The position numbers were made by a program, and so were the translations under genes. This document shows, one piece after another, positions 12,694 to 47,568 of a stretch of 64,000 nt of DNA. The first letter of the stretch is position 1. Each line of letters starts with the position of its first letter. The notes beneath the pieces were generated by a model, which saw only the letters and a program-made list of their open reading frames with translations, was not told where the DNA came from and ran no database searches. The stretch is from a bacterium. GTDB taxonomy: Bacteria > Patescibacteriota > Patescibacteriia > SG8-24. The DNA is taken from the NCBI GenBank assembly GCA_021824285.1, contig JAKAKZ010000003.1:571-64570 (forward strand). Direction: 5' to 3'.

Positions 12694-12724
12694 AAAAACA
12701 CCCAGCCGCGCTGGGTGTTTTTTG
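12694..12724 (+). terminator. terminator after tmRNA
   Basis: acacccagc-cgc-gctgggtgt followed by tttttt. Confidence 0.75.
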
Positions 12725-12840
12725 CAGCAGTTGAAAGTCATCGTCGGCAACTCTCAACTTTTCCCGCCGTTGGCGGGACCCCGCCCTCTTTGACTAAATA
12801 TGAGTGGCGGGGAAACTCTAAACTTTTAACCGCCCGATTG
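12724..12840. repeat. MITE-like element copy A (62-nt core 12755-12816 with AGTTGA-type inverted flanks)
   Basis: Core caacttttcccgccgttggcgggaccccgccctctttgactaaatatgagtggcggggaaac is near-identical to 47486-47547. Flanks are agttgaaagt...caactctcaac / tctaaacttttaacc. Confidence 0.6.
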
Positions 12841-12879
12841 ACCCCACCCCCGAGGCGCTGATATCATTGAAATAATCAT

Positions 12880-13341
12880 ATGTTCAGCAAAAAAACCGGT
12901 CATTCGGTCTGGGACAAGTTCTTGATTCTGGGTGTTTTTGTCTCTTTTGTCGGTGCGGGCTTTCTCTATATAGGCATATTGCTGTGGCGGTCTTCGCGTT
13001 CCCCGGCGGCCGCGCCGGCCATCGCTGTCACCTCTGGCCCCTCGAGCGATGAGTATCGGGCCGACTGCCGCGATATAGCGGCGCCCTTCCTGCGGCAGGC
13101 ATCGGCCGTCAACCCGGCGCAGATCGGCGTCGTCGGGCCGGAACTCGCCAAACTTGCCGAGGCTACCCGCCAGCGGCTGATGCGCCTGCGCGTGCCGGCA
13201 CCTGACCGCGACGCGCACCTGCGCCTCATCCTGCTGCTCGATGAGTGGAAAAGGGCCGCCGTCGGCTCCGCGGATGAGGCGGCTTCGGCCACGGCCCACA
13301 CCGCTGACCTGCTGGATTCTTTCCACTGGCTGTCGCGCTAG
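12880..13341 (+). CDS. hypothetical membrane-anchored protein
   Basis: N-terminal TM helix (FLILGVFVSFVGAGFLYIGILLW) followed by a soluble domain. Confidence 0.5.
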   Translation: MFSKKTGHSVWDKFLILGVFVSFVGAGFLYIGILLWRSSRSPAAAPAIAVTSGPSSDEYRADCRDIAAPFLRQASAVNPAQIGVVGPELAKLAEATRQRLMRLRVPAPDRDAHLRLILLLDEWKRAAVGSADEAASATAHTADLLDSFHWLSR

Positions 13342-13350
13342 CTGCTCCAT

Positions 13351-14079
13351 ATGACGGTTGTGGAACGCCATGATCAGGCGGAACGGGAGGCAATCCGTGA
13401 TGAGGTCCGCGCCGAGATGGCGCAGGAGAAGCACTCGCGGCAACTGAAAGGGTGCGGTTGCGCGCTCCTGGCTTTCGCCGTCCTCATCGGCGCGCCGATC
13501 GGCCTGACCATCTGGGTCATCGCCAAGAGCGGCTTCATCGAGATTCCGGTATTGTCTGATTTGGTCTACCGCCCGCCCGCCCCGGTCCGCCAAGTGGTGC
13601 CGCTCGTCGGGACGGATGCCGAGACCATCGCCAAGTCGCTGGCCGCCACGGCCAAACCAGGTTCGGCCTCCGGAACTGCGGAAATCACGGTTTCCGAACA
13701 GGAACTCACCACTTTCTTGGCGGCCGCGGTCCAGTCCGGCGATTTGCCTCAATTGCCGTTGGCGGGCAAGATCACGTCGGCGCAGGCGGCTATCGATCCG
13801 GATTTCATCGAGATTTATCTTTCGGCCGCGATGGCCAACGGTCAGCCGCAGCCGATCATCCTACGCGTCCTGCCGACGGTAGTGTCTGGCCAGCTCAATT
13901 TCCGGGTCAAAGAAGCCGTCCTCGGCTCCTTTCCTCTCCCGGCTGCCATTTTCGAACCGCTGCTCAACAAGGCCGCGGCCTCCGCCATGGCGCGCATGTC
14001 CGGTACTGGCGGCGCGGTCCTGACGGCCATCAGGCTGACTTCAGGACACATGACCCTCGTCTTCGCCGCCGCCCGCTGA
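13351..14079 (+). CDS. hypothetical membrane-anchored protein
   Basis: TM helix ALLAFAVLIGAPIGLTIWVIA followed by an extracytoplasmic domain. Tightly spaced with its neighbours. Confidence 0.5.
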   Translation: MTVVERHDQAEREAIRDEVRAEMAQEKHSRQLKGCGCALLAFAVLIGAPIGLTIWVIAKSGFIEIPVLSDLVYRPPAPVRQVVPLVGTDAETIAKSLAATAKPGSASGTAEITVSEQELTTFLAAAVQSGDLPQLPLAGKITSAQAAIDPDFIEIYLSAAMANGQPQPIILRVLPTVVSGQLNFRVKEAVLGSFPLPAAIFEPLLNKAAASAMARMSGTGGAVLTAIRLTSGHMTLVFAAAR

Positions 14080-14085
14080 TTCCTT

Positions 14086-14877: not shown

Positions 14878-14880
14878 TAT

Positions 14881-16023: not shown

Positions 16024-16032
16024 CCATCCATC

Positions 16033-16061
16033 TTGACAGAAGTCGTTTTTTCTGCTATAGT
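16033..16061 (+). promoter_or_regulatory. sigma70-type promoter TTGACA-N17-TGcTATAGT
   Basis: tcTTGACAgaagtcgttttttcTGCTATAGTgagc, upstream of the Wzz-like gene. Confidence 0.65.
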
Positions 16062-16082
16062 GAGCCGTTATCTCGCATAAAT

Positions 16083-16721: not shown

Positions 16722-16728
16722 TAGAAAG

Positions 16729-16762
16729 GAAAAATGCCCAAACGGGCATTTTTCTTTTGTTT
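16729..16762 (+). terminator. rho-independent terminator
   Basis: aaaaatgcccaaacgggcatttttcttttgtttt. Confidence 0.8.
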
Positions 16763-16784
16763 TATGTGCCCATGCGCGGCTGGA

Positions 16785-16813
16785 TTGACAGATAGCAATT
16801 TTTCTGCTATATT
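16785..16813 (+). promoter_or_regulatory. sigma70-type promoter TTGACA-N17-TGcTATATT
   Basis: gaTTGACAgatagcaatttttcTGCTATATTtagc. The downstream leader resembles that at 16062-16080 (agcYgttMtctcgcaWa). Confidence 0.65.
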
Positions 16814-16878
16814 TAGCTGTTCTCGCAATAGGGCGGGGACTGGCAGACCATTCAAAACTGAGGTCTATGGAGGCCGAA

Positions 16879-17547: not shown

Positions 17548-17712
17548 CTCGGCCAGACAACGCTTTAAACCCCTCTTCGGAGGGGTTTTTCTTTTGGGTC
17601 AGACCCCAATTACGATTATTTGCCTAAAATTAGCCAATTCTTTCGCAGTCAGACCCTCTGGGAGCACTAAATTGTTTTTATCCTGGGCCGTCAGCCAGCC
17701 TCCATCGCATTC

Positions 17713-20620: not shown

Positions 20621-20656
20621 CGGGCGTCAGCATTCCGCTGACGCCCGCTTTTATTT
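20621..20656 (+). terminator. rho-independent terminator
   Basis: gggcgtcagc-attcc-gctgacgccc followed by gcttttatttc. Confidence 0.7.
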
Positions 20657-20660
20657 CATC

Positions 20661-20705
20661 CAAGGGGACTGTCCCTTTTTGTTCAAAAGGGGACACTCCC
20701 CTGTG
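20661..20705. repeat. REP elements (GGGGACTGTCCC palindromes) of the RAYT-associated family
   Basis: caaggggactgtccctttttgttcaaaaggggacactcccctgtg. The same units flank the transposase at 35809-35880 and 36496-36575. Confidence 0.6.
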
Positions 20706-29215: not shown

Positions 29216-29275
29216 AATAGTTCCACAACCGTTTCCATACTCCTAAACTCTAAACCCTAAGACATCAAATCTCCA

Positions 29276-29563: not shown

Positions 29564-29915
29564 AGCTGTGGGTGAAGATTGTGGGATAAAGATGCGGGCA
29601 GGAGGTGAGGCCATCAGATTAGATGCCCGTTTCTTTGCCGCCATCTCTATTTATCTCTCGATTTCTATTTATCACAATCCACAATATTAGTCAACATTAC
29701 TGTAGACTTATGTCGGCAATTTAGGCTCTTGAACCCTTTTGCTACAGTGCTTCGTATTAATGATTACGCAATCGCCGCCACCCATATATTCAGTCCGCCG
29801 TTGAGCTTCTTTGGGCTTAAAAGGATTGCCAGAAAGCACCCAGCATGCTATATTCGTCCAGTCATTTTAATCGGCAGGGTGGAGCTTATTTTCAATTCAA
29901 AGCTCCTCCCAGGGT

Positions 29916-29943
29916 GTAACGCTTGGCCGCTTCTTACGTCTAA
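29916..29943 (+). promoter_or_regulatory. candidate ECF-type autoregulatory promoter GTAAC-N16-CGTCTAA, 8 nt upstream of ATG
   Basis: gtGTAACgcttggccgcttcttaCGTCTAAttggATG. An AAC -35 and CGTC -10 resemble ECF sigma promoters. The transcript would be leaderless. Confidence 0.4.
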
Positions 29944-29947
29944 TTGG

Positions 29948-30547: not shown

Positions 30548-30602
30548 ACGGCGAGGTGGCGCCCCGCACGATTCTTGGGTTTCCCGCGAACGCGACATCC
30601 TG

Positions 30603-31699: not shown

Positions 31700-31776
31700 T
31701 TGTTGGGTTGAGAGTTGAAAGTTGACAGTTGAGTTCCGGCCGGGACTTTCAACTTTAAACTCTAAACTTTCAACCG
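31700..31776. repeat. AGTTGA/AACTTT-type inverted repeat
   Basis: gttgagagttgaaagttgacagttgag ... gactttcaactttaaactctaaactttcaacc. Confidence 0.5.
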
Positions 31777-32021
31777 CACGAACAATGCCATTGGGTCTGG
31801 CAACCGAACGCCTGACCGTGCGCCCGATCCGCGCGCCCGCTTCCCTTCGAAAAGGAACGGCCGCTGCAGATCGGCCGCACTGTCCGGTAACCGGTCGTTC
31901 AGACCCGTATATGTCGGAAACACGACGCATCAGCCCACAAGGTCGAGTCCCACAAGGACGCTGGCGCGTACGCCGCCGCAGGATTACCTGCGGGGCTACT
32001 CCAAAAGGATTACTTCAACTT

Positions 32022-35000
32022 ATGAACAACGTGTTACGTATGAGCCGGAAGGCCATGACGGGCGCTGTCGTCGCTACGACGATCGCCTGGTCCATCGGTC
32101 TCTCCGCCCTCGTCGCCCCGCTGGCCGTCAAGGCCGCGCCGGCTGCGGGCACGCTCGTCAAGGCTTCCCTCCCGGCCGTCTACTACGTCGGCTCGGACGG
32201 CAAGCGCTATGTCTTCCCGAACGAGAAGACCTACAAGACCTGGTACGCTGATTTCTCCAGCGTCCAGACCATCACTGATGCGGAACTCGCCGCGCTCCCG
32301 ATTGGTGGCAACGTCACCTACAAGCCGGGCGTCCGCATGATCAAGATCACCTCGCTCCCGAAGGTGTACGCCGTCTCCAAGGGCGGTGCGCTCCACTGGG
32401 TCACCAGCGAGGCGGTCGCCACCGCGCTCTACGGCGCGAACTGGAACAAGATGATCGATGACGTACCGGATTGGGCGTGGGTCAACTACGTCGAGTCCTC
32501 GGACATCAACTCGGCCAGCGATTTCAACGCTTCCTCCGAGTCGTCCATCGCCTCGATCAACCTCGACAAGAACCTCGGCAGCTCCGCTGTCGTTACGGGT
32601 GCCTTGTCCGCCTCTCTCAGCTCGAGCAGCCCGGCTGCCACGACGCTGCCGAAGGGCGCCACTGGCGTCGTTCTCGTCAAGCTTGATGTCCGCAACGGCG
32701 GTTCGTCCGCCGCGGTCGTCGACTCCCTGACGGTGCGCCGCTCCGGTCCGGGCGCGGCCTCGGATTTCTCCGCGGTCTACGTCTACAACGACAACAACCG
32801 CCTGACCACCGGTCGGACGATCAACTCGTCCACCAACGAGGCCTCGTTCAGCGGTCTCGGCCTGTCGCTCGCCGCTGGTGAGAGCAAGTCTCTCTCCATC
32901 GTCGCCGACATCGCCTCGTCCGTTGGCGCCGGCAACGTCAGCGCGTTCTCCGTCGTCTCTCTGAGCGCCGGTACGACCGCCGCTTCCGGCCTGCCGCTCG
33001 CTGGCCCGAACTTCACCATGTCTTCCGCCACGGCCGGTTCCCTGACTGTCACCAAGTCCGGCGCCAGCCCGCTGTCCAACGTCAAGTTGGGCGGTATGGC
33101 CCAGAAGATCGGTGAGTTCCAGCTCGCCGTCGGCTCCGCCGAGGATGTCCGCCTCGCCAAGATTGCCTTGTACGAGGCTGGCGCGGTCAGCAAGTCCTCT
33201 CTCTCCAACTTTGCCCTCAAGCAGGCCGGTCTGACGATCGCCACTGCCGCGGGTATCGACAGCAAGGATCGCGTCACCTTCGTGCTCGCGGCTCCGATGC
33301 TCCTGGAGAAGGGCACTTCCCGCACCTTCGAGGTGTTCGCTGATGTCGCGGCCAACGCCCGCGTCGGCTCCACCGAGACCATCCTCTCCTACGTCGATCA
33401 GGCCTCTGACGTTCTCGCGATCGGTCAGACCTACGGCGTCGGCGTGAGCGTGGATATCGGCTCCTCCGGCAACTACAACGGCACTTCCTGTGCCCTGGGC
33501 GCCGGCAACTGCTCCTCGACTCGCATTGAGGGCGGCCAGCTGACGGTTACCTTCAACGGCCCGGCCGTTAAGGACATCGCCGTCAACGGCAAGGATGTCG
33601 AGCTCTACAACTTCACCATGGCTGCGGCCAGCAACCTCGAAGTGCGCTACCTGCGCATGCAGATCAATGCTGCCAACGTCGCTGGTACCAACGACGGTCT
33701 CATCGACACGTCCGGCACCGCGGTCGCCAACTACTCGGACATCAAGGTCACCGACGTCGCCACTGGCGCCATCGTGGCCGGTCCGCTGTCGTTGAGCACC
33801 TCGGGTTCCGACTCCACCCAGGCTCTGACCTTCACCGAGGTGTTCAACCTCGCTCCGGGCCAGGCCCGCACCTTCAAGGTGACGGCTGATGTCGCGAACA
33901 ACGCCGACGCCACCTTCGCCAACGACACGGTCAGCATCGACCGCCTCGCTTGGAGCTCTGGTGACATCCGCAACCTGGACAACAGCACCAACATTGCCCT
34001 CTCCGACATCGTGCCGAACACGACTGCCGCGGGTAATGCCCACAACATCAAGTCCCCGAGCCTGACGGCCTCCGCCGGTTCCACGCCGGTCGCGCAGACC
34101 TTCATCATGGGTTCGCAGGGCGTCGCGTTCCTCGGTCTCAACCTGAAGGCGGGCGATGCGTCTGACATCAACGTCAGCTCGCTCACCCTCAAGGGCATGA
34201 TCGACGCTACGCAGGACGGCACCTTCGCCCAGGGTCAGGAATCCACTGGCAACACTGTCGCCGCGGTCGTCGCGACGGCTAAGCTGATGAACGGTGCGAC
34301 CCAGCTCGGTCAGACCAAGTCCCCGGCCACGTCTTCGGGCGTCGGCACTGGCGGCGACATGACCTTCGACAACCTGAACCTCACGGTTCCGAAGGGCCAG
34401 TCGCTCGCTCTGACGCTCGTCGTCAACCTGAACGGCGGTCTCGGCTCGATCTCGAGCGACCTCCGCTTCGACGTGACCGCCGGCTCCGCTACGGATGCTG
34501 ACGGCAACAACGTCTCGGTCAGCGGCCTGACGGTCACTGGCACGAAGATGACGGTCAAGTCCGCCGGTACGCTCACGCTGGCTCTCGCTCCGGATGATAC
34601 GGAGTCCGAGGCCGGTCTGGTCGTCGGTGGTTCTTCGAACGCCGTCCTCGGCAAGTTCAAGTTCACCGCCCAGAACGAGGAGCTGAAGCTCACCAAGCTT
34701 AACGCCACGGTCGATACGGCCGCCGGCGTCAGCAGCTTGAGCCTCTTCGACGGTTCCACCCTCGTCGCCGGTCCGATCGGCGTCGACGGCACGGGCCTCG
34801 CCTCCTTCACTGGCGTCAACTTCGTCATCCCGAAGGATGCTTCTAAGGTCCTGACCGTTAAGGGCAACCTGAACGCGGTGGGCGCCTCCGGCGCTACGAC
34901 CGGTTCCTCGGTCCGCCTCGGTCTGTCCACCACCAACTTCGAGGTCCGCGGCACGTCGGCCGGCTCCAGCACTCTGCTGACCGCCCCGTCCTCCGGCGCC

Positions 35001-35561
35001 TTCCCGTTGGCGGCCAACCCGAAGGTCGCCCGCAAGTCCAAGCCGACGGTGTCCGTTGTCGCTCTGCCGACCACGACGCTGTCCGGCGGCGACCAGGTCG
35101 TCCTGCGCTTCACGGTTGCGGCTGACGCTGCCAGCGACATCTCGCTCGGCCAGCTCCACGCCACGATCACGAAGAGCGGTTCCGTCGTCGTTGCCCTCCC
35201 GGCTTCGCCGACCACCAAGACCCTGCGCCGCACTGGTGGTGACTTCATCACCCTCGGCACTGTGACCTTCTCGACCAACGACCTGCTCATGGTCCTCTCC
35301 ACGGAGGAGACCGTCGCGGCTGGCACGTCCAAGACCTTCGAGGTCTACATGAACATGACCAGCGCCGCGAACGGCGACAGCGTTACGTCCACCATCCCGA
35401 CGGATGCGGCTAGCGCCACGGGCACTCTGTCCGGCCTCTCGGCCAACAACTTTGTCTGGTCCGACATGTCCATTGTCGGCCACGGCACGGGTACGGCTGA
35501 CTGGGCTTCTGGCTACAAGGTCAAGAGCCTGCCGACGGACTCCCAGTCGCTGGTCAAGTAA
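32022..35561 (+). CDS. giant secreted surface protein (1179 aa): conserved ~105-aa N-terminal module + long low-complexity beta-rich region
   Basis: Signal peptide MNNVLRMSRKAMTGAVVATTIAWSIGLSALVAPLAVKAAPAAG. The module AVYYVGSDGKRYVFPNEKTYKTWY...VTYKPGVRMIKI...KVYAV...LYGANWNKMIDDVPDWAWVNY is followed by ~1000 aa of A/S/T/G/V-rich repeats. The opposite-strand 1149-aa ORF is an artefact. Confidence 0.75.
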   Translation: MNNVLRMSRKAMTGAVVATTIAWSIGLSALVAPLAVKAAPAAGTLVKASLPAVYYVGSDGKRYVFPNEKTYKTWYADFSSVQTITDAELAALPIGGNVTYKPGVRMIKITSLPKVYAVSKGGALHWVTSEAVATALYGANWNKMIDDVPDWAWVNYVESSDINSASDFNASSESSIASINLDKNLGSSAVVTGALSASLSSSSPAATTLPKGATGVVLVKLDVRNGGSSAAVVDSLTVRRSGPGAASDFSAVYVYNDNNRLTTGRTINSSTNEASFSGLGLSLAAGESKSLSIVADIASSVGAGNVSAFSVVSLSAGTTAASGLPLAGPNFTMSSATAGSLTVTKSGASPLSNVKLGGMAQKIGEFQLAVGSAEDVRLAKIALYEAGAVSKSSLSNFALKQAGLTIATAAGIDSKDRVTFVLAAPMLLEKGTSRTFEVFADVAANARVGSTETILSYVDQASDVLAIGQTYGVGVSVDIGSSGNYNGTSCALGAGNCSSTRIEGGQLTVTFNGPAVKDIAVNGKDVELYNFTMAAASNLEVRYLRMQINAANVAGTNDGLIDTSGTAVANYSDIKVTDVATGAIVAGPLSLSTSGSDSTQALTFTEVFNLAPGQARTFKVTADVANNADATFANDTVSIDRLAWSSGDIRNLDNSTNIALSDIVPNTTAAGNAHNIKSPSLTASAGSTPVAQTFIMGSQGVAFLGLNLKAGDASDINVSSLTLKGMIDATQDGTFAQGQESTGNTVAAVVATAKLMNGATQLGQTKSPATSSGVGTGGDMTFDNLNLTVPKGQSLALTLVVNLNGGLGSISSDLRFDVTAGSATDADGNNVSVSGLTVTGTKMTVKSAGTLTLALAPDDTESEAGLVVGGSSNAVLGKFKFTAQNEELKLTKLNATVDTAAGVSSLSLFDGSTLVAGPIGVDGTGLASFTGVNFVIPKDASKVLTVKGNLNAVGASGATTGSSVRLGLSTTNFEVRGTSAGSSTLLTAPSSGAFPLAANPKVARKSKPTVSVVALPTTTLSGGDQVVLRFTVAADAASDISLGQLHATITKSGSVVVALPASPTTKTLRRTGGDFITLGTVTFSTNDLLMVLSTEETVAAGTSKTFEVYMNMTSAANGDSVTSTIPTDAASATGTLSGLSANNFVWSDMSIVGHGTGTADWASGYKVKSLPTDSQSLVK

Positions 35562-35769
35562 TGACCGCGTAAGGGTTCTCGTGACTCCTTTGGTCTAAAA
35601 GTCACGGTGCGCGGTACGTGAGTCGGGTGCGGTCGGGGAGTCGGACGCCAAAATAGCGTCCGGCCACCCGCCCACCCGCTCGCGCCGCCGCCTCGGGTCT
35701 CGGTCCGCAATAAAAGCGTTCCGACTAGCCCAACTCGCGCTGCCTGCTCATTCAGGCCGCGCGCCGCAA

Positions 35770-35795
35770 GACACCGGCTTCCGCCGGTGTTTTGC
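35770..35795 (+). terminator. rho-independent terminator
   Basis: caccggc-ttcc-gccggtg followed by ttttgc. Confidence 0.55.
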
Positions 35796-35808
35796 TTATC
35801 CACAAGGG

Positions 35809-35880
35809 GACAGTCCCTTTTTCACCCAAAAGGGACAGTCCCTTTTTGGGTCAAAAGGGACTGTCCCCTAAAAGTCCTTC
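35809..35880. repeat. REP cluster (3 units of AAAGGGACWGTCCCTTTT) flanking RAYT
   Basis: aaggggacagtccctttt, aaaagggacagtcccttttt and aaaagggactgtccccta. The last unit overlaps the transposase stop. Confidence 0.7.
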
Positions 35881-36449
35881 CGTTTCTTGATCGGGTTTTG
35901 CTGCCACGCTCTCGTCATTGCCCGATATTCCGCTTGGCGTTCCATTGGATTAACTGCAAGTGAAAGATACAGCGGATTTTGATCTATCAACGAATCAGGT
36001 TGGCCATATGCGTAAGTCACATAACTAGACCAAGGGTAGCCTTCTGGATTTTTCGTAATGCCGGCTCTAACAGGATTCAACTCAATATAGATTCCGCAGA
36101 TTGATTGGTAGGCCTCATCAGTAACGATGCGGCTATGGAAACGGCCTTGCCATAAATGTCCGACAAAACCGTATTTTTTCTTATAATAAAGCGAATAAGT
36201 TTGATTGATTGTCTTCATTATAATTGCCAGATTTTGACCGCCGGACACCAATAATTGCATGTGCAGGTGATTGTTCATGACGCAATAATGATAGAGAAGA
36301 AAGGGTGTTTCTTTTTTGGCCTTCTGCACGATGGCCAACATGGCATAAAAGTCCTCATCATCTAGAAAAATGATGTTTTTGTTGTTGCCGCGGCTGACAA
36401 CGTGATAGATCGCCGTACCTGATTCGATTGGTCTGGCAGTTCTTGGCAT
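35868..36449 (-). CDS. IS200/IS605-family Y1 HUH transposase (REP-associated tyrosine transposase, RAYT-like)
   Basis: IYHVVSRGNNKNIIF...HLHMQLLV (HuH) ...TYSLYYKKKYGFVGHLWQGRFHSRIV matches the Y1 transposase fold. The gene is markedly AT-rich compared with the surrounding genome. Start at MPRTARP (ATG ~36449). Confidence 0.7.
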   Translation of the reverse strand: MPRTARPIESGTAIYHVVSRGNNKNIIFLDDEDFYAMLAIVQKAKKETPFLLYHYCVMNNHLHMQLLVSGGQNLAIIMKTINQTYSLYYKKKYGFVGHLWQGRFHSRIVTDEAYQSICGIYIELNPVRAGITKNPEGYPWSSYVTYAYGQPDSLIDQNPLYLSLAVNPMERQAEYRAMTRAWQQNPIKKRKDF

Positions 36450-36495
36450 AGCGCGCTTTCTTTTACACCGTAGCGGCGTCCTTTCAAGGCAGTTA

Positions 36496-36575
36496 TCCAC
36501 AAGGGGACTGTCCCTTTTTTGGTCAAAAGGGACTGTCCCTTTTTGGCCCAAAAGGGACTGTCCCCTTTGTGCTAT
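36496..36575. repeat. REP cluster (3 units) on the other flank of RAYT
   Basis: ccacaaggggactgtcccttttttggtcaaaagggactgtccctttttggcccaaaagggactgtcccctttgtgc. Confidence 0.7.
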
Positions 36576-36586
36576 ACTTGGCGCAT

Positions 36587-37789
36587 ATGCGCCCACGACT
36601 CCTTTCTCATCTCGCGCTGGCATCATTGCTGGCCGTCTCTCTAATTCCTTCCATGCCCGCCGCTGCCACCGGGCAGACTTACGTTGCGGATACCGAAATC
36701 CAGGTCGGCAGCTCGACGCTCAAGATCATGGCCGGCTCCGAGGCGGACAGTCTGTCAGTCGCCGGCAACAGCCTGACCGTGACCGTGGCGCCGGATGAGG
36801 TCTTTGACCTGCGCTATCCGGGCGGCAATCCGCTGGGTCTCGAGAACGATTCCGGCTTGGCCGCCTGCAACGTCCTGCCGAACCGCGATAACCAGCTGCT
36901 GATCACCGGGCCGCACACCGTGACTGTCTCGGTCAGCACCTTCGCCTGCAGCACGGCCAATTACAGCACCAACAGCACGCCCCTTCTCACCGTCTCCCAG
37001 CCGGCTGGCGGAGCGTCGTTCAAGCCCGGCGATAGCGCGCAGATCTTCTGGCAGCTGACCGGCCATTCCGTGGCCAGCATCCGGATCCGCCTGTCCGTCG
37101 ACGGGGGATTGAGCTATCCGACCACCTTGGTCGACAACCTGCTGAACAGCGGCTTCTATTCCTGGACCGTGCCGGAGATGACCACGACGACGCACGCCCG
37201 GCTGAAGATCGAGGGGCGCACCCAGGGGGCAACGTCCGCCTGGGCCTTGAGCCAGGAATTCTCCATCCAGGGCGCAGCGCCCGCCGCGCCGGCTGAAACG
37301 GCGGCGCCGGCACCTGGCGGTTATTCGCCAGAGGCGGTCACGGCCGAGGCCGATTCCATCGGGCATGATCGGGGCTTTGTCAGTACGCCGGAAGCCGCAT
37401 CCTCCGAGTGCCCGGCCGGATTGCGTATCAAGGGTCGCGGTCTGCCAGCGGTCTATTACTGCGGCCCGGACGGCAAGCGGCATCCTTTCCCGAACCAGAA
37501 GATCCATGATTCGTGGTATGCCGGCGATTTCGCCGGAGTCTACGAGGTCGCCGACTCGACCCTGGCGCGGATTGCGCTCGGCCAGAACGTGACCTACCGG
37601 CCTGGAGTGCGCATGGTCAAGGTGACTACGGACCCCAAGGTCTATGCCGTGGACGCCGACGGCACGCTGCGGTGGATCAAGACCGAAGCGGCGGCGGCGC
37701 GGCTTTACGGCGCGGACTGGAACAAGAAGATCGATGACCTGCCGGACGCCTTCTTCTTCGATTACCATACAGGCGATCCCATCGAATGA
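36587..37789 (+). CDS. secreted protein with C-terminal copy of the conserved ~105-aa module
   Basis: Signal peptide MRPRLLSHLALASLLAVSLIPSMPAAA. The mid-region resembles Ser/Thr-rich surface domains. The C-terminus AVYYCGPDGKRHPFPNQKIHDSWY...VTYRPGVRMVKV...KVYAV...LYGADWNKKIDDLPDAFFFDY is the shared module. Confidence 0.65.
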   Translation: MRPRLLSHLALASLLAVSLIPSMPAAATGQTYVADTEIQVGSSTLKIMAGSEADSLSVAGNSLTVTVAPDEVFDLRYPGGNPLGLENDSGLAACNVLPNRDNQLLITGPHTVTVSVSTFACSTANYSTNSTPLLTVSQPAGGASFKPGDSAQIFWQLTGHSVASIRIRLSVDGGLSYPTTLVDNLLNSGFYSWTVPEMTTTTHARLKIEGRTQGATSAWALSQEFSIQGAAPAAPAETAAPAPGGYSPEAVTAEADSIGHDRGFVSTPEAASSECPAGLRIKGRGLPAVYYCGPDGKRHPFPNQKIHDSWYAGDFAGVYEVADSTLARIALGQNVTYRPGVRMVKVTTDPKVYAVDADGTLRWIKTEAAAARLYGADWNKKIDDLPDAFFFDYHTGDPIE

Positions 37790-37906
37790 ACGCGACGGCG
37801 GACCGCCGGCCCCAGCGGCCGGCGGTTTTGGCTCACGGCCCGGCGGTTGCCAAGCCCCGACTTTTCGGCTAGGGTCAGTGATGTATTACAGCTAATTTTC
37901 AACCGT

Positions 37907-39106
37907 ATGCGCCGCAATATCCAGCATTTCCCGCTCGCCGTCCTGATGTCCCTGGCTCTCGCCCTGCCGCTCCTGCCGGCGCGACCGGCCGCCGCGACCG
38001 TTCTGGGTGTCTTTCCGGGCGACCTCATCAAGCTGCAGGACGACCATAATTCCCAGACGCATGAGGACGAGGCCGTCTATTATTTCGACAAGGATTGGTT
38101 CCGCCATCCCTTCCCGAACCAGCGCGTGTTCATGAGCTGGTACCGGGACTTTTCCGGCGTGAAGTCGCTGTCCACGACGGACATGGCCGATATCCGCATG
38201 GGGGCGCCCGTGACCTACCGGCCCGGCACGCGGCTCGTGAAAATCCCTTCAATCCCGAAAGTCTACGCAGTGGAACCGGGCGGCATTCTGCGCTGGATCA
38301 CGGACGAGTCGGTCGCCAAGGACCTCTATGGCGCCAACTGGTCCAAGCGGGTGGACGACGTGAGCGAGGCCTTCTTCGTCAACTACAAGGAAGGCGAACC
38401 GCTGCGCACGGCAATGTGGCCGACCGGCACGCTGGTCCGCAATCCGGCGGACAAGACGCTTTATGTCATCGACGGCTACTCGCGCCGCCATGTCACCGCG
38501 ACGGAAGCCGCGTCGCTGCGGCTTAACGAGTCCGACGCGCTGGACGGCGGCACGGCTATTGAGGAGCTGCCCATGGGACCGTCGGCCACAGCCGGCGGCG
38601 ACCGCCTGTCCGATACCGCCGAGCTTTCCCGGATCGAGACCTTGCCGGCCCTGCAGATAGATTTCCCGGCGCCGGTCACGGCCGCGGCACGCGGCGCGGA
38701 GCAGGTGCTCCTGTCCATGCGGCTCACTGCCGGCGCGCCGGTAACCTTACGGCGTCTCACGGCCAAGCTCTCCGGACCGGTCCGGCTGAACGGCCAGCCG
38801 CTGCTCACTGATCTGCGGTTTGAGGATTCGGCGGGCGAGAACATCTTCGGCACGGTCCAGCTGCCGGCCGACAGCGGAGACGAACTCGCGACGCTCGTCT
38901 GGAACGGTGCCTTCACTCTGCAGGCCGGCACGGAAGACATGGTGAAACTGCTGGCATCGGTCTCGGCGGACATGCCGGCCGGAGCGCAACTGACCATCGA
39001 GCTGCCGCGGTCCGGATCCTACGTCTCCGATGGCTTCGACGCTGAGGAACGCGCGCAATTCGCGCCGCCCGGCGAACTCCCGGACGCCAAAGTGACCTTC
39101 CGCTAA
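37907..39106 (+). CDS. secreted protein with N-terminal copy of the conserved ~105-aa module
   Basis: Signal peptide MRRNIQHFPLAVLMSLALALPLLPARPAAA. AVYYFDKDWFRHPFPNQRVFMSWY...VTYRPGTRLVKI...KVYAV...LYGANWSKRVDDVSEAFFVNY. Confidence 0.65.
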   Translation: MRRNIQHFPLAVLMSLALALPLLPARPAAATVLGVFPGDLIKLQDDHNSQTHEDEAVYYFDKDWFRHPFPNQRVFMSWYRDFSGVKSLSTTDMADIRMGAPVTYRPGTRLVKIPSIPKVYAVEPGGILRWITDESVAKDLYGANWSKRVDDVSEAFFVNYKEGEPLRTAMWPTGTLVRNPADKTLYVIDGYSRRHVTATEAASLRLNESDALDGGTAIEELPMGPSATAGGDRLSDTAELSRIETLPALQIDFPAPVTAAARGAEQVLLSMRLTAGAPVTLRRLTAKLSGPVRLNGQPLLTDLRFEDSAGENIFGTVQLPADSGDELATLVWNGAFTLQAGTEDMVKLLASVSADMPAGAQLTIELPRSGSYVSDGFDAEERAQFAPPGELPDAKVTFR

Positions 39107-39112
39107 GAGAAG

Positions 39113-39140
39113 GAACGCGCCTCCCCAGGCGCGTTTTTTC
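39113..39140 (+). terminator. rho-independent terminator
   Basis: aacgcgcc-tcccca-ggcgcgtt followed by ttttc. Confidence 0.7.
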
Positions 39141-39162
39141 GCCGCCGAACTCCTGGGCCGAA

Positions 39163-39175
39163 CGGTGGTATAATG
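39163..39175 (+). promoter_or_regulatory. extended -10 TGGTATAAT ~8 nt upstream of ATG (leaderless candidate)
   Basis: cggTGGTATAATggccgcatATGg. Confidence 0.45.
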
Positions 39176-39182
39176 GCCGCAT

Positions 39183-41498
39183 ATGGTTACGGCATCCCGT
39201 ATGGGCAAGATTCTGGCTGCCGCCGCCTGCCTGGCGGCGGTATTGGCGGTCCGTCCGCCGGCGGAAGCCGCTGCTTCGTACCAGGCCGGCGACCTGGTCA
39301 AGGCACCGGACAGCCGAGCCGTGTATTACGTCGGCTCCGACGGCCGGCGCTATGTCTTTCCGAACCAGCTGACCTACCTGACCTGGTACGGAGATTTCGC
39401 GTCGGTCAGGACCATCGCGGACGCGGAATTGGCCGCTCTTTCGATCGGCGGCAACGTCACTTACCGCCCCGGAACCAGGCTCGTGAAGATCGTCTCCGAT
39501 CCGCGGGTCTATGCCGTCGAACCGGGCGGCGTCCTGCGGCCAATTCCGGACGAGAGCGCGGCCGTCGCGCTCTACGGCGCGGACTGGTCGAAGCGGGTGG
39601 ACGATGTCCCTGATGCATTTTTTTTCAGCTACCGGATCGGCGCGCCGCTCGCGGCCGCGGCCTACCCGGAAGGCTCTTGGGTGCGGCGGGTCTCCGACGG
39701 CCGGATCTTCCTGATCCAAGACGGCCAGAAACGTGAGGTCTCCGGCTCATTGCTCACCGCGCTTCGCGTCACCGCGGCGCAGATCATGCCGGAGACGGCC
39801 GACCTGAACGGCTATGCCCTCGGCGCGCCGCTTGAGCAGACCGAGAGCCTGAACGACACCGCCCAGCTGGGCATCGAGCGGACTACCGCCGCTCCCGTGG
39901 CGTCGCTCTACCTGCAGCCGGCGACCGACCCCGGCATGCCAATCTACGTACGTGGAACCAAGGACGCGGCCATCGCTGGCCTGCTCCTCATGGACGGTTC
40001 CGCGGATCCGGTCACGGTCTCGGCCATCACCTTCCAGGGTTACGTGGACAGCGAAGGCACTGCGGGCTTCCTGCCGGCGGTGGATTCCGATGGGGGATCG
40101 GCCAAGCACGTGAATGCGATCCTGCCGGCCGCGTCTCTCTACGACGACACCGGCCGACTGCTGGCCGGTCCGGTGCCGATCGGACTTGACGGCCGGGCGT
40201 TCTTCAGCGGTTTCCGCCTGGCGGTTCCGGCCGGCGGCAGCCGTACGGTCGTGATCAGAGGGGACATCCCGGCGTACCTGGATACCGGTCTCGAGCCGGA
40301 TTATCTAGCGTTCGACGTGGAGGACGCGGTCCGCGACGTCACGGTCACGGATGCGGCCGGCGGCAGCGTCAAAGCGACCGGCAACCGGCCGAATCGCGGG
40401 ACCGAGGCCTTCAACTACGCGAAGATTCTGCGCAGCGGAACGGTCAATTTCACCTGGCGCGGCACGACGACCGTGATGATCGGTGGGCGCGACGCCAAAC
40501 TCGGCACTCTGACGGTGGATACGAAATACGATACCTACGCCTTGCGCACGATTGCCTTCCGGCGGACCAGCCAGACTTCTTATGGCGACGCGCGGCTGGA
40601 ATATCCCGGTGCGGACGGCAAGACCGTTTCGAAGACGGTCCAATGGCGCGGCGGCGCGGCCGTGTTCACCGATTTGGGAGCGTACTTGCCGCGGGACTCG
40701 TCCGTGGGCCTCGCGCTCTACGCGCAGGTCCTGTCCCGCGATACCGGGGGAGTCTACGGCGATGCGCTTGGCGCGCAGCTCGACACCGCCGGACCGCTGC
40801 AGTTCGTATCCCAGGCCGAGGGCGCGACCTATTCGGAGAAGGATTTGGGCAACGGTTCGTTTGGTCTCGTGGCCAATACGGCCGGTCGGGTAACGGTTCG
40901 CTATTCCGGCTTGAGCGTCACGCCGTTGCCGACCGCCGTCGCATTCCGCGACAGCAATACGCCGCTGCTGGCCTTCTCCGCCAAAGCGGAACCCGAGGGT
41001 CCCATCCGGATCAGGAAGATGACGTTTCGCATCAGCCCGGATGACGCGGGACGTTCCGGGGCCGCGAATGATGCGCTCGAACTCTGGGCGGGACGTCCGG
41101 CGACTTCGATTGCAGCCGTGCGCCGCGTCTATTCGACCACGACCGAACTCCTCGGTACTCCCGGCAACGGCCGGCTGCGTTTCCGGGAGTGGCGCGGCAA
41201 CGGCACGGAGATCGACCAGGCGCAGCCGTTCCAGTCGAACATCGGCGACTACGCCACGCTGGAGCTGGACTTCGGCGAGAACGGCGAGTATCTGATACCG
41301 GCTGGCCTGACGGCCGATTTCCGGTTCGAATTGGACACGACCGTTTTCCCGACTGATCGCGATCACCGCTGCGCCGTCGAGCTGCGCGGCGACGCGGATT
41401 TCCTTTGGACCGACATCCCGTATGGCGCCTACACCGCGCTCGGCGGCACGGACGCGGGCGGTGTGCCCTTCTCGGCCACGGTTACGGTGAATAAATAA
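39183..41498 (+). CDS. secreted protein (771 aa) with N-terminal copy of the conserved ~105-aa module
   Basis: Signal peptide MVTASRMGKILAAAACLAAVLAVRPPAEA. AVYYVGSDGRRYVFPNQLTYLTWY...VTYRPGTRLVKI...RVYAV...LYGADWSKRVDDVPDAFFFSY, then ~600 aa without a recognised domain. The start could alternatively be MGKIL at 39201. Confidence 0.65.
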   Translation: MVTASRMGKILAAAACLAAVLAVRPPAEAAASYQAGDLVKAPDSRAVYYVGSDGRRYVFPNQLTYLTWYGDFASVRTIADAELAALSIGGNVTYRPGTRLVKIVSDPRVYAVEPGGVLRPIPDESAAVALYGADWSKRVDDVPDAFFFSYRIGAPLAAAAYPEGSWVRRVSDGRIFLIQDGQKREVSGSLLTALRVTAAQIMPETADLNGYALGAPLEQTESLNDTAQLGIERTTAAPVASLYLQPATDPGMPIYVRGTKDAAIAGLLLMDGSADPVTVSAITFQGYVDSEGTAGFLPAVDSDGGSAKHVNAILPAASLYDDTGRLLAGPVPIGLDGRAFFSGFRLAVPAGGSRTVVIRGDIPAYLDTGLEPDYLAFDVEDAVRDVTVTDAAGGSVKATGNRPNRGTEAFNYAKILRSGTVNFTWRGTTTVMIGGRDAKLGTLTVDTKYDTYALRTIAFRRTSQTSYGDARLEYPGADGKTVSKTVQWRGGAAVFTDLGAYLPRDSSVGLALYAQVLSRDTGGVYGDALGAQLDTAGPLQFVSQAEGATYSEKDLGNGSFGLVANTAGRVTVRYSGLSVTPLPTAVAFRDSNTPLLAFSAKAEPEGPIRIRKMTFRISPDDAGRSGAANDALELWAGRPATSIAAVRRVYSTTTELLGTPGNGRLRFREWRGNGTEIDQAQPFQSNIGDYATLELDFGENGEYLIPAGLTADFRFELDTTVFPTDRDHRCAVELRGDADFLWTDIPYGAYTALGGTDAGGVPFSATVTVNK

Positions 41499-44037: not shown

Positions 44038-44044
44038 ATTCCAT

Positions 44045-44500: not shown

Positions 44501-44502
44501 TA
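44493..44502 (+). promoter_or_regulatory. extended -10 TGGTATAAT
   Basis: aaaTGGTATAATatatagg, 29 nt upstream of the ATG at 44531. Confidence 0.4.
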
Positions 44503-44530
44503 TATAGGTAGACGAGAGCTTCTTATCCCT

Positions 44531-45565
44531 ATGGCCGCAGATCCCATTTTCGAGAAGAAAAACGTGCTGGTGACCGGCGGGGCCGGCTTCATCGGCTCAT
44601 TCCTGTGCGAGCGGCTGCTCAAGGACGCCCGCGTCATTTGCGTGGACAATTTCTCGACCTCCGCCCCGGCCAACATCGAGCTGCTGCTCAAGAACCCGGA
44701 TTTCGAGCTGCTGAAGATGGACATCGCCCAGCCGTTGGACCTCGAGAATTACGCCGAGCTGGAACGCTTCAAGATCAAGTTCCAGGGCATTCAGGAGATC
44801 TATCATCTCGCCTGTCCGACCTCGGCCAAGGATTTCGACAAGTTCCGCTATGCGACGCTCCTGGCCAATTCCGTCGGCCTGCGTAACGTGCTCGACCTGA
44901 CGGTCAAGTACAAGGCGCGGTTCTTCCATGCCTCCACATCGGTCATCTACGGACCGCGTCCGACCGACGGCCACCTGTTCAAGGAGGCGGAGTTCGGCGT
45001 CATGGACCACCTCTCGCCGCGCGCCTGCTACGACGAGGGCAAGCGCTGGGCCGAGACCATGGTCCAGACGTTCAAGAACATCTTCGGCATCGATGCCCGC
45101 ATCGCCCGCATTTTCCGAACTTTCGGGCCGCGCATGCCGCTCAATGACGGTCAGATGATTCCGGATTTCATCCTGGACGCGCTCGACGGCAAGGACCTGA
45201 CGATTTTCGGCGGTCAGGAATTCCGCACCTCGCTGGTCTATGTCACGGACGTGGTGGACGGCATCCTGCGGCTCATGGCGCTCGGCCGTGATCCCGGACC
45301 GGTGAATATCGGCAGCGACTATGATGTCCGACTTTCCGACGTGGCCAAACGCATCATTGAACTGACGGGATCGAAATCGCAGATCAAGTACGAGCAGCCC
45401 CTCCTGTTCATGAGTCAGCTCGGGTTGCCGGACCTGACCAAGGCCAAGGATGAGCTGGGCTGGTTCCCGCTGGTCTCGCTGGAGCAGGGACTCAAGAAGT
45501 CAATCGAGTACACGGTGGCGCATCGCGGTCTGCTGCAGCCGAGCTTTCGGCCGAACGGGTCCTGA
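44531..45565 (+). CDS. UDP-glucuronate decarboxylase (UDP-xylose synthase)-like SDR
   Basis: GGAGFIGSFLCERLL Rossmann motif, STSVIYG and an intact YDEGKRWAETM (YxxxK). Strong overall similarity to the UXS family. Confidence 0.75.
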   Translation: MAADPIFEKKNVLVTGGAGFIGSFLCERLLKDARVICVDNFSTSAPANIELLLKNPDFELLKMDIAQPLDLENYAELERFKIKFQGIQEIYHLACPTSAKDFDKFRYATLLANSVGLRNVLDLTVKYKARFFHASTSVIYGPRPTDGHLFKEAEFGVMDHLSPRACYDEGKRWAETMVQTFKNIFGIDARIARIFRTFGPRMPLNDGQMIPDFILDALDGKDLTIFGGQEFRTSLVYVTDVVDGILRLMALGRDPGPVNIGSDYDVRLSDVAKRIIELTGSKSQIKYEQPLLFMSQLGLPDLTKAKDELGWFPLVSLEQGLKKSIEYTVAHRGLLQPSFRPNGS

Positions 45566-45603
45566 CGGCCATTGGCCAGTTCATTTTATACTGACGTTAA
45601 GGA

Positions 45604-45631
45604 GAAAACCGCGCCGTCAGGCGCGGTTTTA
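45604..45631 (+). terminator. terminator between UXS paralogs
   Basis: aaccgcgcc-gtcag-gcgcggtt followed by tttt. Confidence 0.55.
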
Positions 45632-45749
45632 GCGTCCGCAGTCCGGTCCGCGAGCGCGTTCTTCGCTTAAGCTTGAAGTTAAGCGCTGTCCAGCCTATAA
45701 TAAGCGAAGGTTTACCGACGCGAATCAACGCGTATTTTCCGCATGTCTT

Positions 45750-46775
45750 ATGGCTGACCGGCCGCAAATCGGCAAGAAAAACATCATCGTCACCGGCGGG
45801 GCCGGATTCATCGGCTCCTTCCTCTGTGAGAAGCTGCTCAAGGAGGCGCGCGTCATCTGCATCGACGACTTCAGCACCTCGTCCGTGGCCAATATCGAGC
45901 ATCTGCTCAAGAACCCTGATTTCGAGCTGCTGCGGCACGATCTCGCCGAACCGCTGGACCTGCTGGCCCAGCCCGAGCTGGAGCGGTTCAAGATCGCCGC
46001 CTTGGGCGTCCAGGAAATCTACCATCTGGCCTGCCCGATGGTGGTGAAAAGCTTCATGGAAGAGCGCGAGCGCATCCTCGACGCCAATTCGGTGGTGATG
46101 CGCAACGTGCTCAAGCTGGCCGCCAAGTACCGCGCCAAATTCCTGCTGTCCTCCTCGTCCGTGGTCTATGGCGCGCGCCCTTCCGACCGCCACCAGTGCC
46201 GGGAAGAGGACGCGCACGCGGTCAGCCATCTGACTTCGCGCGCCTGCTATGACGAGGGCCGGCGCTGGTCCGAGACCATGGCCTTCACCTATAAGGAACT
46301 GCACGGCCTCGACATCCGCATCGCCCGCGTCTTCCGCACCTTCGGGCCGCGCATGCCGCTCGATGACGGGCACATGATTCCGGATTTCGTCAGAGCCGCG
46401 CTCGACGGCCGCGACGTGGTGGTGCATGGGGACGCAAAATTCCGTTCCTCCTTCTGTTACGTCACCGACGTGGTGGACGGGCTCGTCCGGCTGATGGGCC
46501 TGAACGCGGACCCCGGGCCGGTCAACCTCGGCAGCGACGAGGATTTCACGGTCAGCGACGTGGCCAAGCACATCGTCCGCCTGCTGGGCTCGGAATCGAA
46601 GATCGTCAGCGGTCCGCCGCTCGTCTTCCTGAGCGAGCTGGGCATTCCGGACCTGACCAGGGCGAAAGAGGCCCTGGGCTGGTTTCCGATCGTGCCGTTT
46701 TTGCAGGGGCTCAAGAAGACCATCGAATACTCATTGAGCGCGCGCGGGGAGGTGCGGCCGCTCAACGATGTCTGA
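45750..46775 (+). CDS. UXS-like SDR paralog with YxxxK Lys replaced by Arg (YDEGRRWSETM)
   Basis: ~55% identical to the 44531 gene. GGAGFIGSFLCEKLL and SSSVVYG are conserved, but the catalytic-dyad Lys position is Arg. It may be a variant or inactive enzyme. Confidence 0.65.
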   Translation: MADRPQIGKKNIIVTGGAGFIGSFLCEKLLKEARVICIDDFSTSSVANIEHLLKNPDFELLRHDLAEPLDLLAQPELERFKIAALGVQEIYHLACPMVVKSFMEERERILDANSVVMRNVLKLAAKYRAKFLLSSSSVVYGARPSDRHQCREEDAHAVSHLTSRACYDEGRRWSETMAFTYKELHGLDIRIARVFRTFGPRMPLDDGHMIPDFVRAALDGRDVVVHGDAKFRSSFCYVTDVVDGLVRLMGLNADPGPVNLGSDEDFTVSDVAKHIVRLLGSESKIVSGPPLVFLSELGIPDLTRAKEALGWFPIVPFLQGLKKTIEYSLSARGEVRPLNDV

Positions 46776-47445
46776 TATGAAGACGACGGTCGTCGTACCG
46801 GCGTTCAACGAGGCCCGGACAGTCGGCGGCGTGGTCCGCGGGCTGCGGCCGGTCTGCGGTCAGGTCATCGTCGTGGATGACGGGTCTTCAGACGGGACGG
46901 CTGCCGCGGCCGCTGCGGCGGGCGCGACGGTCCTGCGCCACGGGCTGAATCGCGGCCTGGGCGCGGCGCTCGGCACTGGCATTACGGCCGCGGTCCGGAG
47001 CGGTGCCGATATCGTGGTGACCTTCGACGCCGACGGCCAGCATAAGCCGGAAGACGTGTCCCGCATGGTGGAGCCCATTGCCGCCGGACGCGCCGACGCG
47101 GTGATCGGCAGCCGCCTGCTCGACCGGCGCAAGATGCCGCTGACGCGGCGGCTCGCCAACTGGATCGGCAACGCCCTGACTTGGTCGCTGTTCGGCCTGT
47201 GGGTCTCGGACAGTCAGTCCGGACTGCGCGCCTTCTCCCGCCAAGCCGCGACGGAGCTGGAGATCCGCACTGACCGCATGGAGGTCTCGTCAGAGATCGT
47301 CAAGGAAGTGCGGCGGCACGGCTGGCGGCTGGCGGAAACGCCCATCGAGCCGGTCTACACCGAGTATTCGCTGTCCAAGGGCCAGGGTTTTCTCGTCGGC
47401 CTGAAGACCGCCGGCAGGCTGGTCCTGCGGCGGCTCATGGGCTAG
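46768..47445 (+). CDS. GT2 family polyprenyl-phosphate glycosyltransferase (ArnC/GtrB/DPM1-like)
   Basis: TTVVVPAFNEARTV...VIVVDDGSSDGT...FDADGQHKP are DxD-type GT2 motifs, ~225 aa. Overlaps the upstream stop by 8 nt. Confidence 0.75.
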   Translation: MSDMKTTVVVPAFNEARTVGGVVRGLRPVCGQVIVVDDGSSDGTAAAAAAAGATVLRHGLNRGLGAALGTGITAAVRSGADIVVTFDADGQHKPEDVSRMVEPIAAGRADAVIGSRLLDRRKMPLTRRLANWIGNALTWSLFGLWVSDSQSGLRAFSRQAATELEIRTDRMEVSSEIVKEVRRHGWRLAETPIEPVYTEYSLSKGQGFLVGLKTAGRLVLRRLMG

Positions 47446-47451
47446 CGGACC

Positions 47452-47568
47452 GAGTTGAGAGTTAAAAGTTATTGTCCAAAACTTTCAACTTTTCCCGCCG
47501 TTGGCGGGACCCCGCCCCCTTTGACTAAAAATGAGTGGCGGGGAAACTTTCAACTTTCAACCATCGGA
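47452..47568. repeat. MITE-like element copy B (62-nt core 47486-47547 with inverted AGTTGA-type flanks)
   Basis: The core differs from copy A (12755-12816) at 2-3 positions. Flanks are gagttgagagttaaaagtt...aaactttcaac / tttcaactttcaacc. Confidence 0.6.

Follow-up and report, generated by a model that had tools for sequence, protein, structure and literature searches.

The window analysed here, a 64-kb stretch of bacterial DNA, contains two near-identical copies of a short, hairpin-forming element: copy A lies just behind the terminator of the tmRNA gene, 66 nt past that gene (12297-12693), and copy B separates a GT2 gene from a DUF2304 gene. SmpB homologues place the window in Candidatus Uhrbacteria (Patescibacteria), and a metagenome-assembled genome from NCBI, GCA_027346945.1, is 99.99% identical to it over 21 kb and represents the same strain. 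The original prediction had described the pair as two 62-nt stretches (12755-12816 and 47486-47547) in these positions, the second ending 26 nt before the DUF2304 start codon, and had judged them too conserved to be random. All of this was borne out: 60 of the 62 positions match, and a chance origin is excluded, each half of the motif occurring exactly twice in the window where none is expected (100 dinucleotide-preserving shuffles).

The repeated unit and its boundaries

The two hairpins that had been proposed for the core both fold. As RNA, the 62-mers of copies A and B reach fold z-scores of -5.5 and -4.2; as DNA, the 51-nt units defined below reach -6.7 and -4.4, and none of 200 shuffled sequences folds as well. 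The repeat finder extends the ungapped similarity of the two loci to 113 nt (12729-12841 against 47460-47572, 86% overall), over which identity is distributed unevenly: 49 of 51 positions (96%) agree in a central core, whereas the left flank agrees at 26 of 33 and the right flank at 22 of 29 (about 76% for the flanks). The repeated unit is exactly this 51-nt core, counting the T that always precedes CCCGCC and the A that always follows GGCGGG. It consists of two abutting hairpins with 7-bp GC stems and no spare ends, P1 (TCCCGCC-GTT-GGCGGGA) and P2 (CCCCGCC, a 20-nt loop, GGCGGGG), so that the element's ends, TCCCGCC... and ...GGCGGGG, are the feet of two separate hairpins. The boundaries of copy A were taken from the comparison with an uninterrupted site in the window, site C, and from the nested copies described below. 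Table 1 collects the coordinates.

Table 1. Positions of the element copies, their host hairpins and adjoining features in the window.
Feature	Position	Strand	Basis or remark
tmRNA gene	12297-12693	+	Rfam RF00023, 126.7 bits; terminator hairpin at about 12694-12723
Site A host hairpin, left: AGTTGAAAGT, spacer, AACTCTCAACTTT (7-nt units)	12729-12761	+	element enters after the final TTT
Element copy A, 51 nt	12762-12812	+	model R1, 68.6 bits, E 1.7e-14
Copy A, P1: TCCCGCC-GTT-GGCGGGA	12762-12778	+	DNA fold
Copy A, P2: CCCCGCC-CTCTTTGACTAAATATGAGT-GGCGGGG	12779-12812	+	DNA fold
Site A host hairpin, right: AAACTCTAAACTTTTAACCGCCCGA	12813-12837	+	23/25 identical to 31757-31781
Sigma-70-type promoter-like site, TTGACC-18-TATCAT	12838-12867	+	between copy A and the open reading frame at 12880; position kept in element-free relatives
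Site C, uninterrupted ('empty') 7-nt-repeat hairpin without core	31703-31782	+	sequence comparison, fold
Site B host hairpin, left: GAGTTGAGAGTTAAAAGTT, loop ATTGTCC, AAAACTTTCAACTTT	47452-47492	+	begins 6 nt past the GT2 stop codon
Element copy B, 51 nt	47493-47543	+	model R1, 65.1 bits; 49/51 identical to A
Copy B, P1	47493-47509	+	fold
Copy B, P2	47510-47543	+	fold; two loop differences from A
Site B host hairpin, right: AAACTTTCAACTTTCAACCATCGGAT	47544-47569	+	ends 4 nt short of the DUF2304 ATG (47574)

Insertion into a pre-existing host hairpin

The AGTTGA/TCAACT arms that had been reported to bracket each copy are indeed present, as arrays of 7-nt units, and these heptamer arms (GTTGARA ... 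TYTCAAC) pair into a long imperfect hairpin. They are not, however, inverted termini of the element, as the same arrays recur without the core at site C, which ends 3 nt short of the ATG (31785) of a gene for a 1258-aa surface-type protein. When 12762-12812 and 47493-47543 are removed in silico, sites A and B become collinear with site C and no bases are left duplicated. The restored junction reads ...CTYTCAACTTT|AAACTYTMAACTTTYAACC, the empty-site sequence restored at both sites is CAACTTTAAACTCT, and the equivalent of the insertion point in site C falls between 31756 and 31757 (CAACTTT^AAACTCT). Two of the window's three paralogous 7-nt-repeat hairpins thus carry the element, at the same position. 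Because removal of the core makes A and B collinear with C and leaves nothing duplicated, sequence comparison shows that the 51 nt were inserted precisely into a host hairpin that is older and more diverged than they are, and whose arms are not the element's termini.

Outside the window the same core is found within unrelated flanks, of which at least three types can be told apart. The flanks vary among contigs and are mostly hairpins of short tandem units. GTTGARA (7 nt) is the unit in the window, and the others are GAnAGCnn (8 nt) and AGCGGGAAG (9 nt); the hairpins begin at or just past stop codons, and the same types of hairpin also occur free of the core.

Long hairpins of 7-9-nt tandem units, each with a purine-rich arm, a loop and a pyrimidine-rich arm, begin at or just past stop codons on contigs L005 (7102-7154), L006 (2423-2494), L007 (13560-13624) and L010 (8435-8488) and at site C of the window. 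Differing tandem-unit sequences coexist in one genome, and hairpins of this kind may be the 3'-end structures of this lineage. A partial heptamer array, CTAAACTCTAAACCCTAAG, stands at 29240-29262, just upstream of a minus-strand GHL15/FG-GAP gene (27170-29215), and may be a degenerate fourth copy of one host-hairpin arm.

Copies in related genomes

A pair of copies standing alone, with no conservation of structure, would have pointed to a chance segmental duplication; in fact 21 more copies occur in related genomes. A covariance model, R1, built from an alignment (A1) of 20 copies, finds 23 strong same-strand copies in 177 kb, namely the two of the window and 21 in eleven contigs of metagenome Ga0265297; the copy density is biased, as the loci were fetched for containing the element. 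A degenerate core pattern matched eleven contigs among the metagenomes of the Joint Genome Institute (JGI), all from this same sample. Among 185,579 species genomes, in which the source species is not represented, the pattern gave nothing genuine and two chance matches (one in a Gemmatimonadaceae coding region, and one other); a scan of IMG/VR gave a single chance match in a GC-rich coding region, and BLAST against plasmid and phage collections gave no match. Nor is the element a known Rfam family (Rfam 15, gathering and permissive thresholds). The only passes in the window are the tmRNA and one tRNA, and the best scores on the two element regions, 11-18 bits, fall far under threshold. ARAGORN was silent on the tmRNA that Rfam detects.

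The occurrence of the element among relatives is patchy. Contig L005 is syntenic with the window at 51.5-59.5 kb, and while the proteins encoded there are just 42-69% identical, the element is about 90% identical; on this contig a copy stands between two genes whose counterparts in the window overlap. Other Uhrbacteria (L022-L032) have no copy at their smpB-tmRNA loci. One of these, L029, has the gene order of the window (TMEM260-smpB-tmRNA-152 aa-...-HtrA-like), and its sequence from the tmRNA terminator to a conserved TTGACC-N17-TATAGT promoter is unrelated to that of the window, containing neither the core nor the heptamer hairpin. Patchy occurrence, together with conservation far above the genomic background, supports mobility.

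All copies are intergenic, and both orientations occur, alternating along L005 (+, -, +, -) and along L015. Where the neighbours are protein genes, about four copies lie sense and about eight antisense between tandem genes; convergent pairs enclose four more and a divergent pair one. Pfam searches of ten genes beside copies returned only housekeeping or unknown functions, such as guanylate kinase, YebC, Fur and L,D-transpeptidase.

Anatomy of the family

Across the family the element measures 49-70 nt, with a P1 of 17 nt and a P2 of 34-53 nt. The stem of P1 is kept, and its loop of 3-6 nt is variable (GTT, TCT, TTT, GAC, GGTAGA). The interior of P2 reads YYCYTTGA(C/T/G), followed by an optional insert and then by RATAYNNGT. 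In the short form of 49-51 nt there is no insert; in the long form of 68-70 nt it is a third hairpin, P3 (GCCAAGC-TTC-GCTTGGC, once swapped for TGTCGAGC-GAA-GCTCGACA); and elsewhere it is a complete second element. In the alignment of copies, 99.4% of stem cells are paired, and the stem sequence is near-invariant while the loops vary. The few stem changes comprise three of the G.U type, which are compatible with pairing on this strand only, one compensatory change from CG to UA and two mismatches; P3 shows three compensatory pairs, all from one sequence. Such invariance points to recognition of sequence plus shape, or to recent spread, and gives no sign of selection on RNA structure.

Nested copies, in which a complete unit stands inside the P2 loop of another, occur at two places on L015 (7210-7330 and 8640-8800). 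The break lies at CTCTTTG^ATGAAA, nothing is duplicated, and the outer P2 is closed by a compensatory T-A pair. On L009 and L010, extra 3' halves are retained.

Copies in the T-loops of partial tRNA genes

tRNA genes precede five of the copies by 30-60 nt on the same strand; the tRNAs are those for Ile, Phe and Pro, all on L015, and for Leu, twice, on L016. In all five cases the element interrupts a partial tRNA copy precisely at the T55/C56 step, or one base further on, and this partial copy lies directly downstream of the intact cognate tRNA. The break is accordingly GGTT^CGAAT or one base beyond, and removal of the element restores a contiguous partial copy of the 3' part of the adjacent tRNA. 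The matches so obtained are 41/41 for Pro, 46/53 for Phe and 28/30 for Leu, with about 40/48 for the Leu copy that takes in the trailer. For Ile, 29/30 across the T-loop is a manual count from the flanks, as local alignment gave just a trivial overlap with the end of the tRNA. Since the tRNA-like sequence runs on past the element in both directions (up to 16/16 nt on the upstream side), the tRNA fragment has been interrupted by the element, which is therefore not an arm of an attachment site.

Partial 3' copies that are free of the element exist beside the tRNA-Asp gene of the window and beside the tmRNA genes of relatives, so tRNA fragments are available as neutral targets. The fragment of tRNA-Asp (intact gene at 5950-6027), AATCCCTTCGGAC...ACCCGCCA, lies at about 5733-5780 on the minus strand, some 200 nt past the intact gene; a 26-nt hairpin interrupts it, and a terminator of its own comes next. 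In relatives, partial or inverted copies of the tmRNA T-arm are found past the tmRNA terminator (L026 10940-11060; L029 3290-3310).

A probable mobile element with a putative single-strand mechanism

We assign a probability of roughly 0.6 to the following reading: the two stretches belong to a family of non-autonomous insertion elements, 49-70 nt long and of the repetitive extragenic palindromic (REP) or palindromic-repeat type, found so far only in a subgroup of Candidatus Uhrbacteria and possibly mobilised as a single strand. By sequence comparison, insertion is precise, leaves no target-site duplication and takes place at foldable sites, which include the tandem-repeat 3' hairpins behind genes, the T-loops of partial tRNA copies and the P2 loop of another copy. 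The junction is loosely conserved: T^CG is seen at 15-17 of the 23 copies, the two window copies have TTT^A, and the 5' flanks differ (GGTT, CTTT, CGTT, AGCA, GGCT, TTTG and others).

Under this reading the element would move as single-stranded DNA, and an enzyme acting in trans would recognise its two like-stemmed hairpins, as do the HUH/Y1 transposases of the REP-associated tyrosine transposase (RAYT) or IS200/IS605 type. Such a mechanism would account for the lack of terminal inverted repeats and of target-site duplications, for boundaries exactly at the feet of the hairpins, and for breaks inside hairpin loops. Near-invariant stems with variable loops would also be expected, because the protein would recognise sequence plus structure. 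The break in the P2 loop, TTTG^AT, resembles the nick sites of rolling-circle Rep proteins (CTTG^ATA). If the element affects neighbouring genes, for example by adding structure at a 3' end or by altering the sequence just before the next gene, this would be a secondary effect.

Several observations weigh on the other side. No cognate enzyme was found: tblastn of the related loci gave no RAYT homologue, and the sole Y1/RAYT-like gene of the window (35868-36341) has another palindrome on its flanks. A cargo-bearing, autonomous copy was sought and none was found, every 5' half having its 3' half no more than about 110 nt further on. Within a contig the copies face in opposite directions, as on L005, while elements of the IS200/IS605 type are usually strand-biased, and the 5' target is only loosely conserved. 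The copy density is biased by the choice of loci, with just two copies in the 64 kb of the window, and the orientation counts rest on our own rough gene calls. The frequent availability of partial tRNA copies as targets is left unexplained, and strong conservation between distant genomes might stem from a cellular function and not from mobility.

R1 defines an easily modelled family with exact boundaries and with both empty and filled sites, whose movement could be traced in metagenomic time series. Its footprint-free landing in hairpin loops points to a structure-directed single-strand mechanism. The family appears to be new, in that a limited literature search gave no description of REP- or MITE-type repeats (MITE, miniature inverted-repeat transposable element) in the Candidate Phyla Radiation (CPR)/Patescibacteria, whose genomes are small and streamlined. 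For annotation, the element explains why a 51-nt block is common to loci as unrelated as the tmRNA downstream region and a glycosylation cluster, and it counsels caution against reading such blocks as regulatory RNAs or island boundaries.

Comparison with known element families

The original prediction had put forward a MITE as one candidate. This holds insofar as the element is a dispersed, hairpin-forming miniature repeat of the mobile-element type, and it shares with classical MITEs (Correia, RUP, Nezha) a small size, the lack of coding capacity, and dispersed, intergenic, foldable copies. Those elements, however, possess terminal inverted repeats and a 2-9-bp target duplication made by a DDE transposase. 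Both features were tested for and are absent here, and the element is therefore not a classical MITE.

A closer resemblance is to the REP sequences and REPINs mobilised by RAYT proteins. These likewise are short GC-rich palindromes, multi-copy and lineage-specific, which lie between genes and mostly downstream of them, in both orientations; they too lack terminal inverted repeats and target-site duplications, have sequence-conserved stems, form larger paired structures and coexist with a RAYT-like gene in the genome. REP features, some of them reportedly as set out by Nunvar (2010), Bertels and Rainey (2011) and Ton-Hoang (2012), include an imperfect palindrome of 20-40 bp in high copy number outside genes, and the element has all of these, with the reservation that its density is that of selected loci. 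It differs in that two abutting hairpins stand in direct rather than inverted order, the second with a conserved loop of 20-40 nt, and in that the RAYT-like gene of the window is accompanied by another palindrome, GGGACAGTCCC, no cognate RAYT having been found. In REP systems, a RAYT gene present once in the genome has the same REPs on its flanks. REP palindromes also carry an unpaired GTAG (or CGTC) tag at one end (PMC3733652). The alignment of 20-23 copies contains neither tag, and shows just a conserved GT before the 3' arm of P2.

The RAYT-like Y1 transposase gene (minus strand; Pfam Y1_Tnp) has a low third-position GC of 0.47 and lies in a region, 35793-36569, with three palindromes of the form AAAAGGGAC(A/T)GTCCCTTTTT on each side of the gene, 25 nt apart; two more are found at 20651-20705. 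Gene and palindromes together look like a REP/RAYT system in a CPR genome, unrelated in sequence to the 51-nt element.

With the miniatures derived from IS200/IS605 elements (PATE-type, 'peel and paste'), the element has in common hairpins of the same stem near both ends, the absence of terminal inverted repeats and target-site duplications, precise insertion, nesting and a short non-autonomous form, features known from work on IS608 and ISDra2. IS608 cleaves 10-19 nt outside its hairpins and uses a fixed 5' tetra- or pentanucleotide target. In contrast, the present element ends at the feet of its hairpins, its better-conserved target side is 3' (^CG), and neither a fixed 5' tetra- or pentanucleotide nor a strand bias within contigs was found. 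No TnpA or TnpB gene lies near the copies.

Insertion sequences that target hairpins, such as IS1397 and ISKpn1 in REP loops and IS1111-type elements in REP or attC sites, likewise enter palindromic hosts at the loop or in unpaired sequence, copies of repeat families included. These are autonomous insertion sequences of 1.2-1.5 kb with transposase genes, and IS1397 produces a target-site duplication; the present element has 51-70 nt and no gene. The unusual traits of the element are the economy of its two hairpins and its preference for hairpin loops, T-loops included.

Alternative explanations

The model of the original prediction, in which the whole unit of 113-118 nt (heptamer arms and core) is a single MITE with AGTTGA/TCAACT termini and copies A and B arose by its transposition or duplication, survives best and is nonetheless unlikely. 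The two loci do share 86% over 113 nt with the core at the same position, composites of core plus similar flanks recur elsewhere (L005a, L012, L019, L015:4240), and the outer hairpin, which is missing from the orthologous locus of L029, is lineage-specific as well. Yet the flanks are far more diverged than the core (about 76% against 96%), site C has the arms without the core, the core is found elsewhere in unrelated flanks and in tRNA T-loops, and the outer ends show no target-site duplication.

It is rather improbable that the element is a structured RNA, whether a small RNA or a cis-acting element of a 3' or 5' untranslated region that serves as terminator, stabiliser or processing signal after tRNA and tmRNA genes. 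The fold is strong (z down to -5.5), all six copies linked to tRNA or tmRNA genes are in the sense orientation, 30-66 nt downstream, and the host hairpins begin right after stop codons. The three stem variants that are G.U-compatible on this strand only, the single compensatory pair and the one replacement of P3 by another hairpin could likewise be taken as signs of selection on an RNA. The copies beside protein genes, however, are antisense about twice as often as sense; no U-tract follows either hairpin on either strand, and there is no promoter-like signal. Furthermore, it is the stem sequence and not just the pairing that is invariant, no Rfam family matches, and neither nesting nor absence from close relatives would be expected of an essential RNA. 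Mixed orientation, nesting and patchy occurrence disfavour the small-RNA candidate of the original prediction, and equally its candidate of a shared protein-binding site.

More specific RNA and promoter functions were also considered and rejected. An intrinsic terminator is ruled out by the lack of a T-run behind either hairpin on either strand. The TTGAC of the P2 loop does not form a sigma-70 promoter, as the short form has no usable -10 element at 16-19 nt and the spacing varies between forms. A small self-cleaving ribozyme (hammerhead, twister-like) finds no support in Rfam and does not agree with the motifs of the core.

Comparably improbable is the idea that the element is a working part of an undescribed system directed at hairpin loops, T-loops especially, with the flanks serving as a homing, replacement or guide segment. 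In such a system a flank, for example a tRNA 3' half, could repair the gene in which it lands, or core plus flank could form a scaffold and guide for a nucleic-acid-guided enzyme; in the window, the 25-nt 3' flank of the element does match another locus, site C. If this were true, the tRNA-linked copies would not be simple passive insertions into existing tRNA fragments.

We consider it very unlikely that a cellular protein (a regulator or a nucleoid protein) binds the element, which would then be maintained by selection at several loci and in the window would form part of an envelope regulon of an extracytoplasmic function (ECF) sigma factor. Four CCCGCC/GGCGGG half-sites are present, the flank motif (G/T)AAAC-N17-18-CGA resembles an ECF promoter, and sites A, B and C precede envelope genes (the HtrA-like operon, DUF2304 in the glycosylation cluster and the giant surface protein, respectively). 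Genes for an ECF sigma factor and a DUF5667 partner immediately precede site C, and in relatives the pair immediately precedes the HtrA-like operon. The promoter-like motif, however, belongs to the flank and not to the core, which site C lacks; a separate sigma-70-type promoter serves the HtrA-like operon both in the window and in element-free relatives; and elsewhere the core stands beside unrelated housekeeping genes and tRNAs and in different flanks, the nested copies being hard to explain. The reading of the flanks as ECF promoters is a weak side idea. The conserved promoter in front of the operon that follows copy A is of the sigma-70 type, and no heptamer hairpin is present at the orthologous locus.

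The ECF sigma and DUF5667 (anti-sigma-like) genes occupy 29729-31568 in the window, just ahead of site C and of the giant surface protein, and in a related Uhrbacterium (L026/L027, 11780-13403) the pair lies between the tmRNA and the 152-aa/HtrA-like operon. Since its position differs between the two, the pair or its target has moved.

Finally, the copies could be direct repeats bounding a 34.7-kb island at the tmRNA gene (attL/attR), or scars of integrative elements, as the adjacency of copy A to a classic integration site and the duplicated tRNA 3' ends around the tRNA-linked copies might suggest; this was rejected as scarcely credible, there being no integrase or mobility gene between the copies except the unrelated RAYT-like gene, the GC content being uniform, the genes after copy A being syntenic in element-free relatives and of envelope and glycosylation type by Pfam, and tRNA-like sequence on both sides of the element indicating insertion within a copy rather than an arm boundary.

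Further observations in the window

Some features of the window lie outside the element and its hosts. Promoter-like repeats of 40 nt (TTGACA-N17-TATAGT) are found at 16033-16072, 16785-16824 and 61240-61279. At many gene starts, TATAAT stands 7-8 nt before the ATG and there is no Shine-Dalgarno sequence, which suggests that leaderless mRNAs may be frequent. Large surface proteins have in common four paralogous domain repeats of 160-210 nt, 61-80% identical (32169-39613), and two tandem paralogous NAD-epimerase genes, about 78% identical, are located at 44531-46775.

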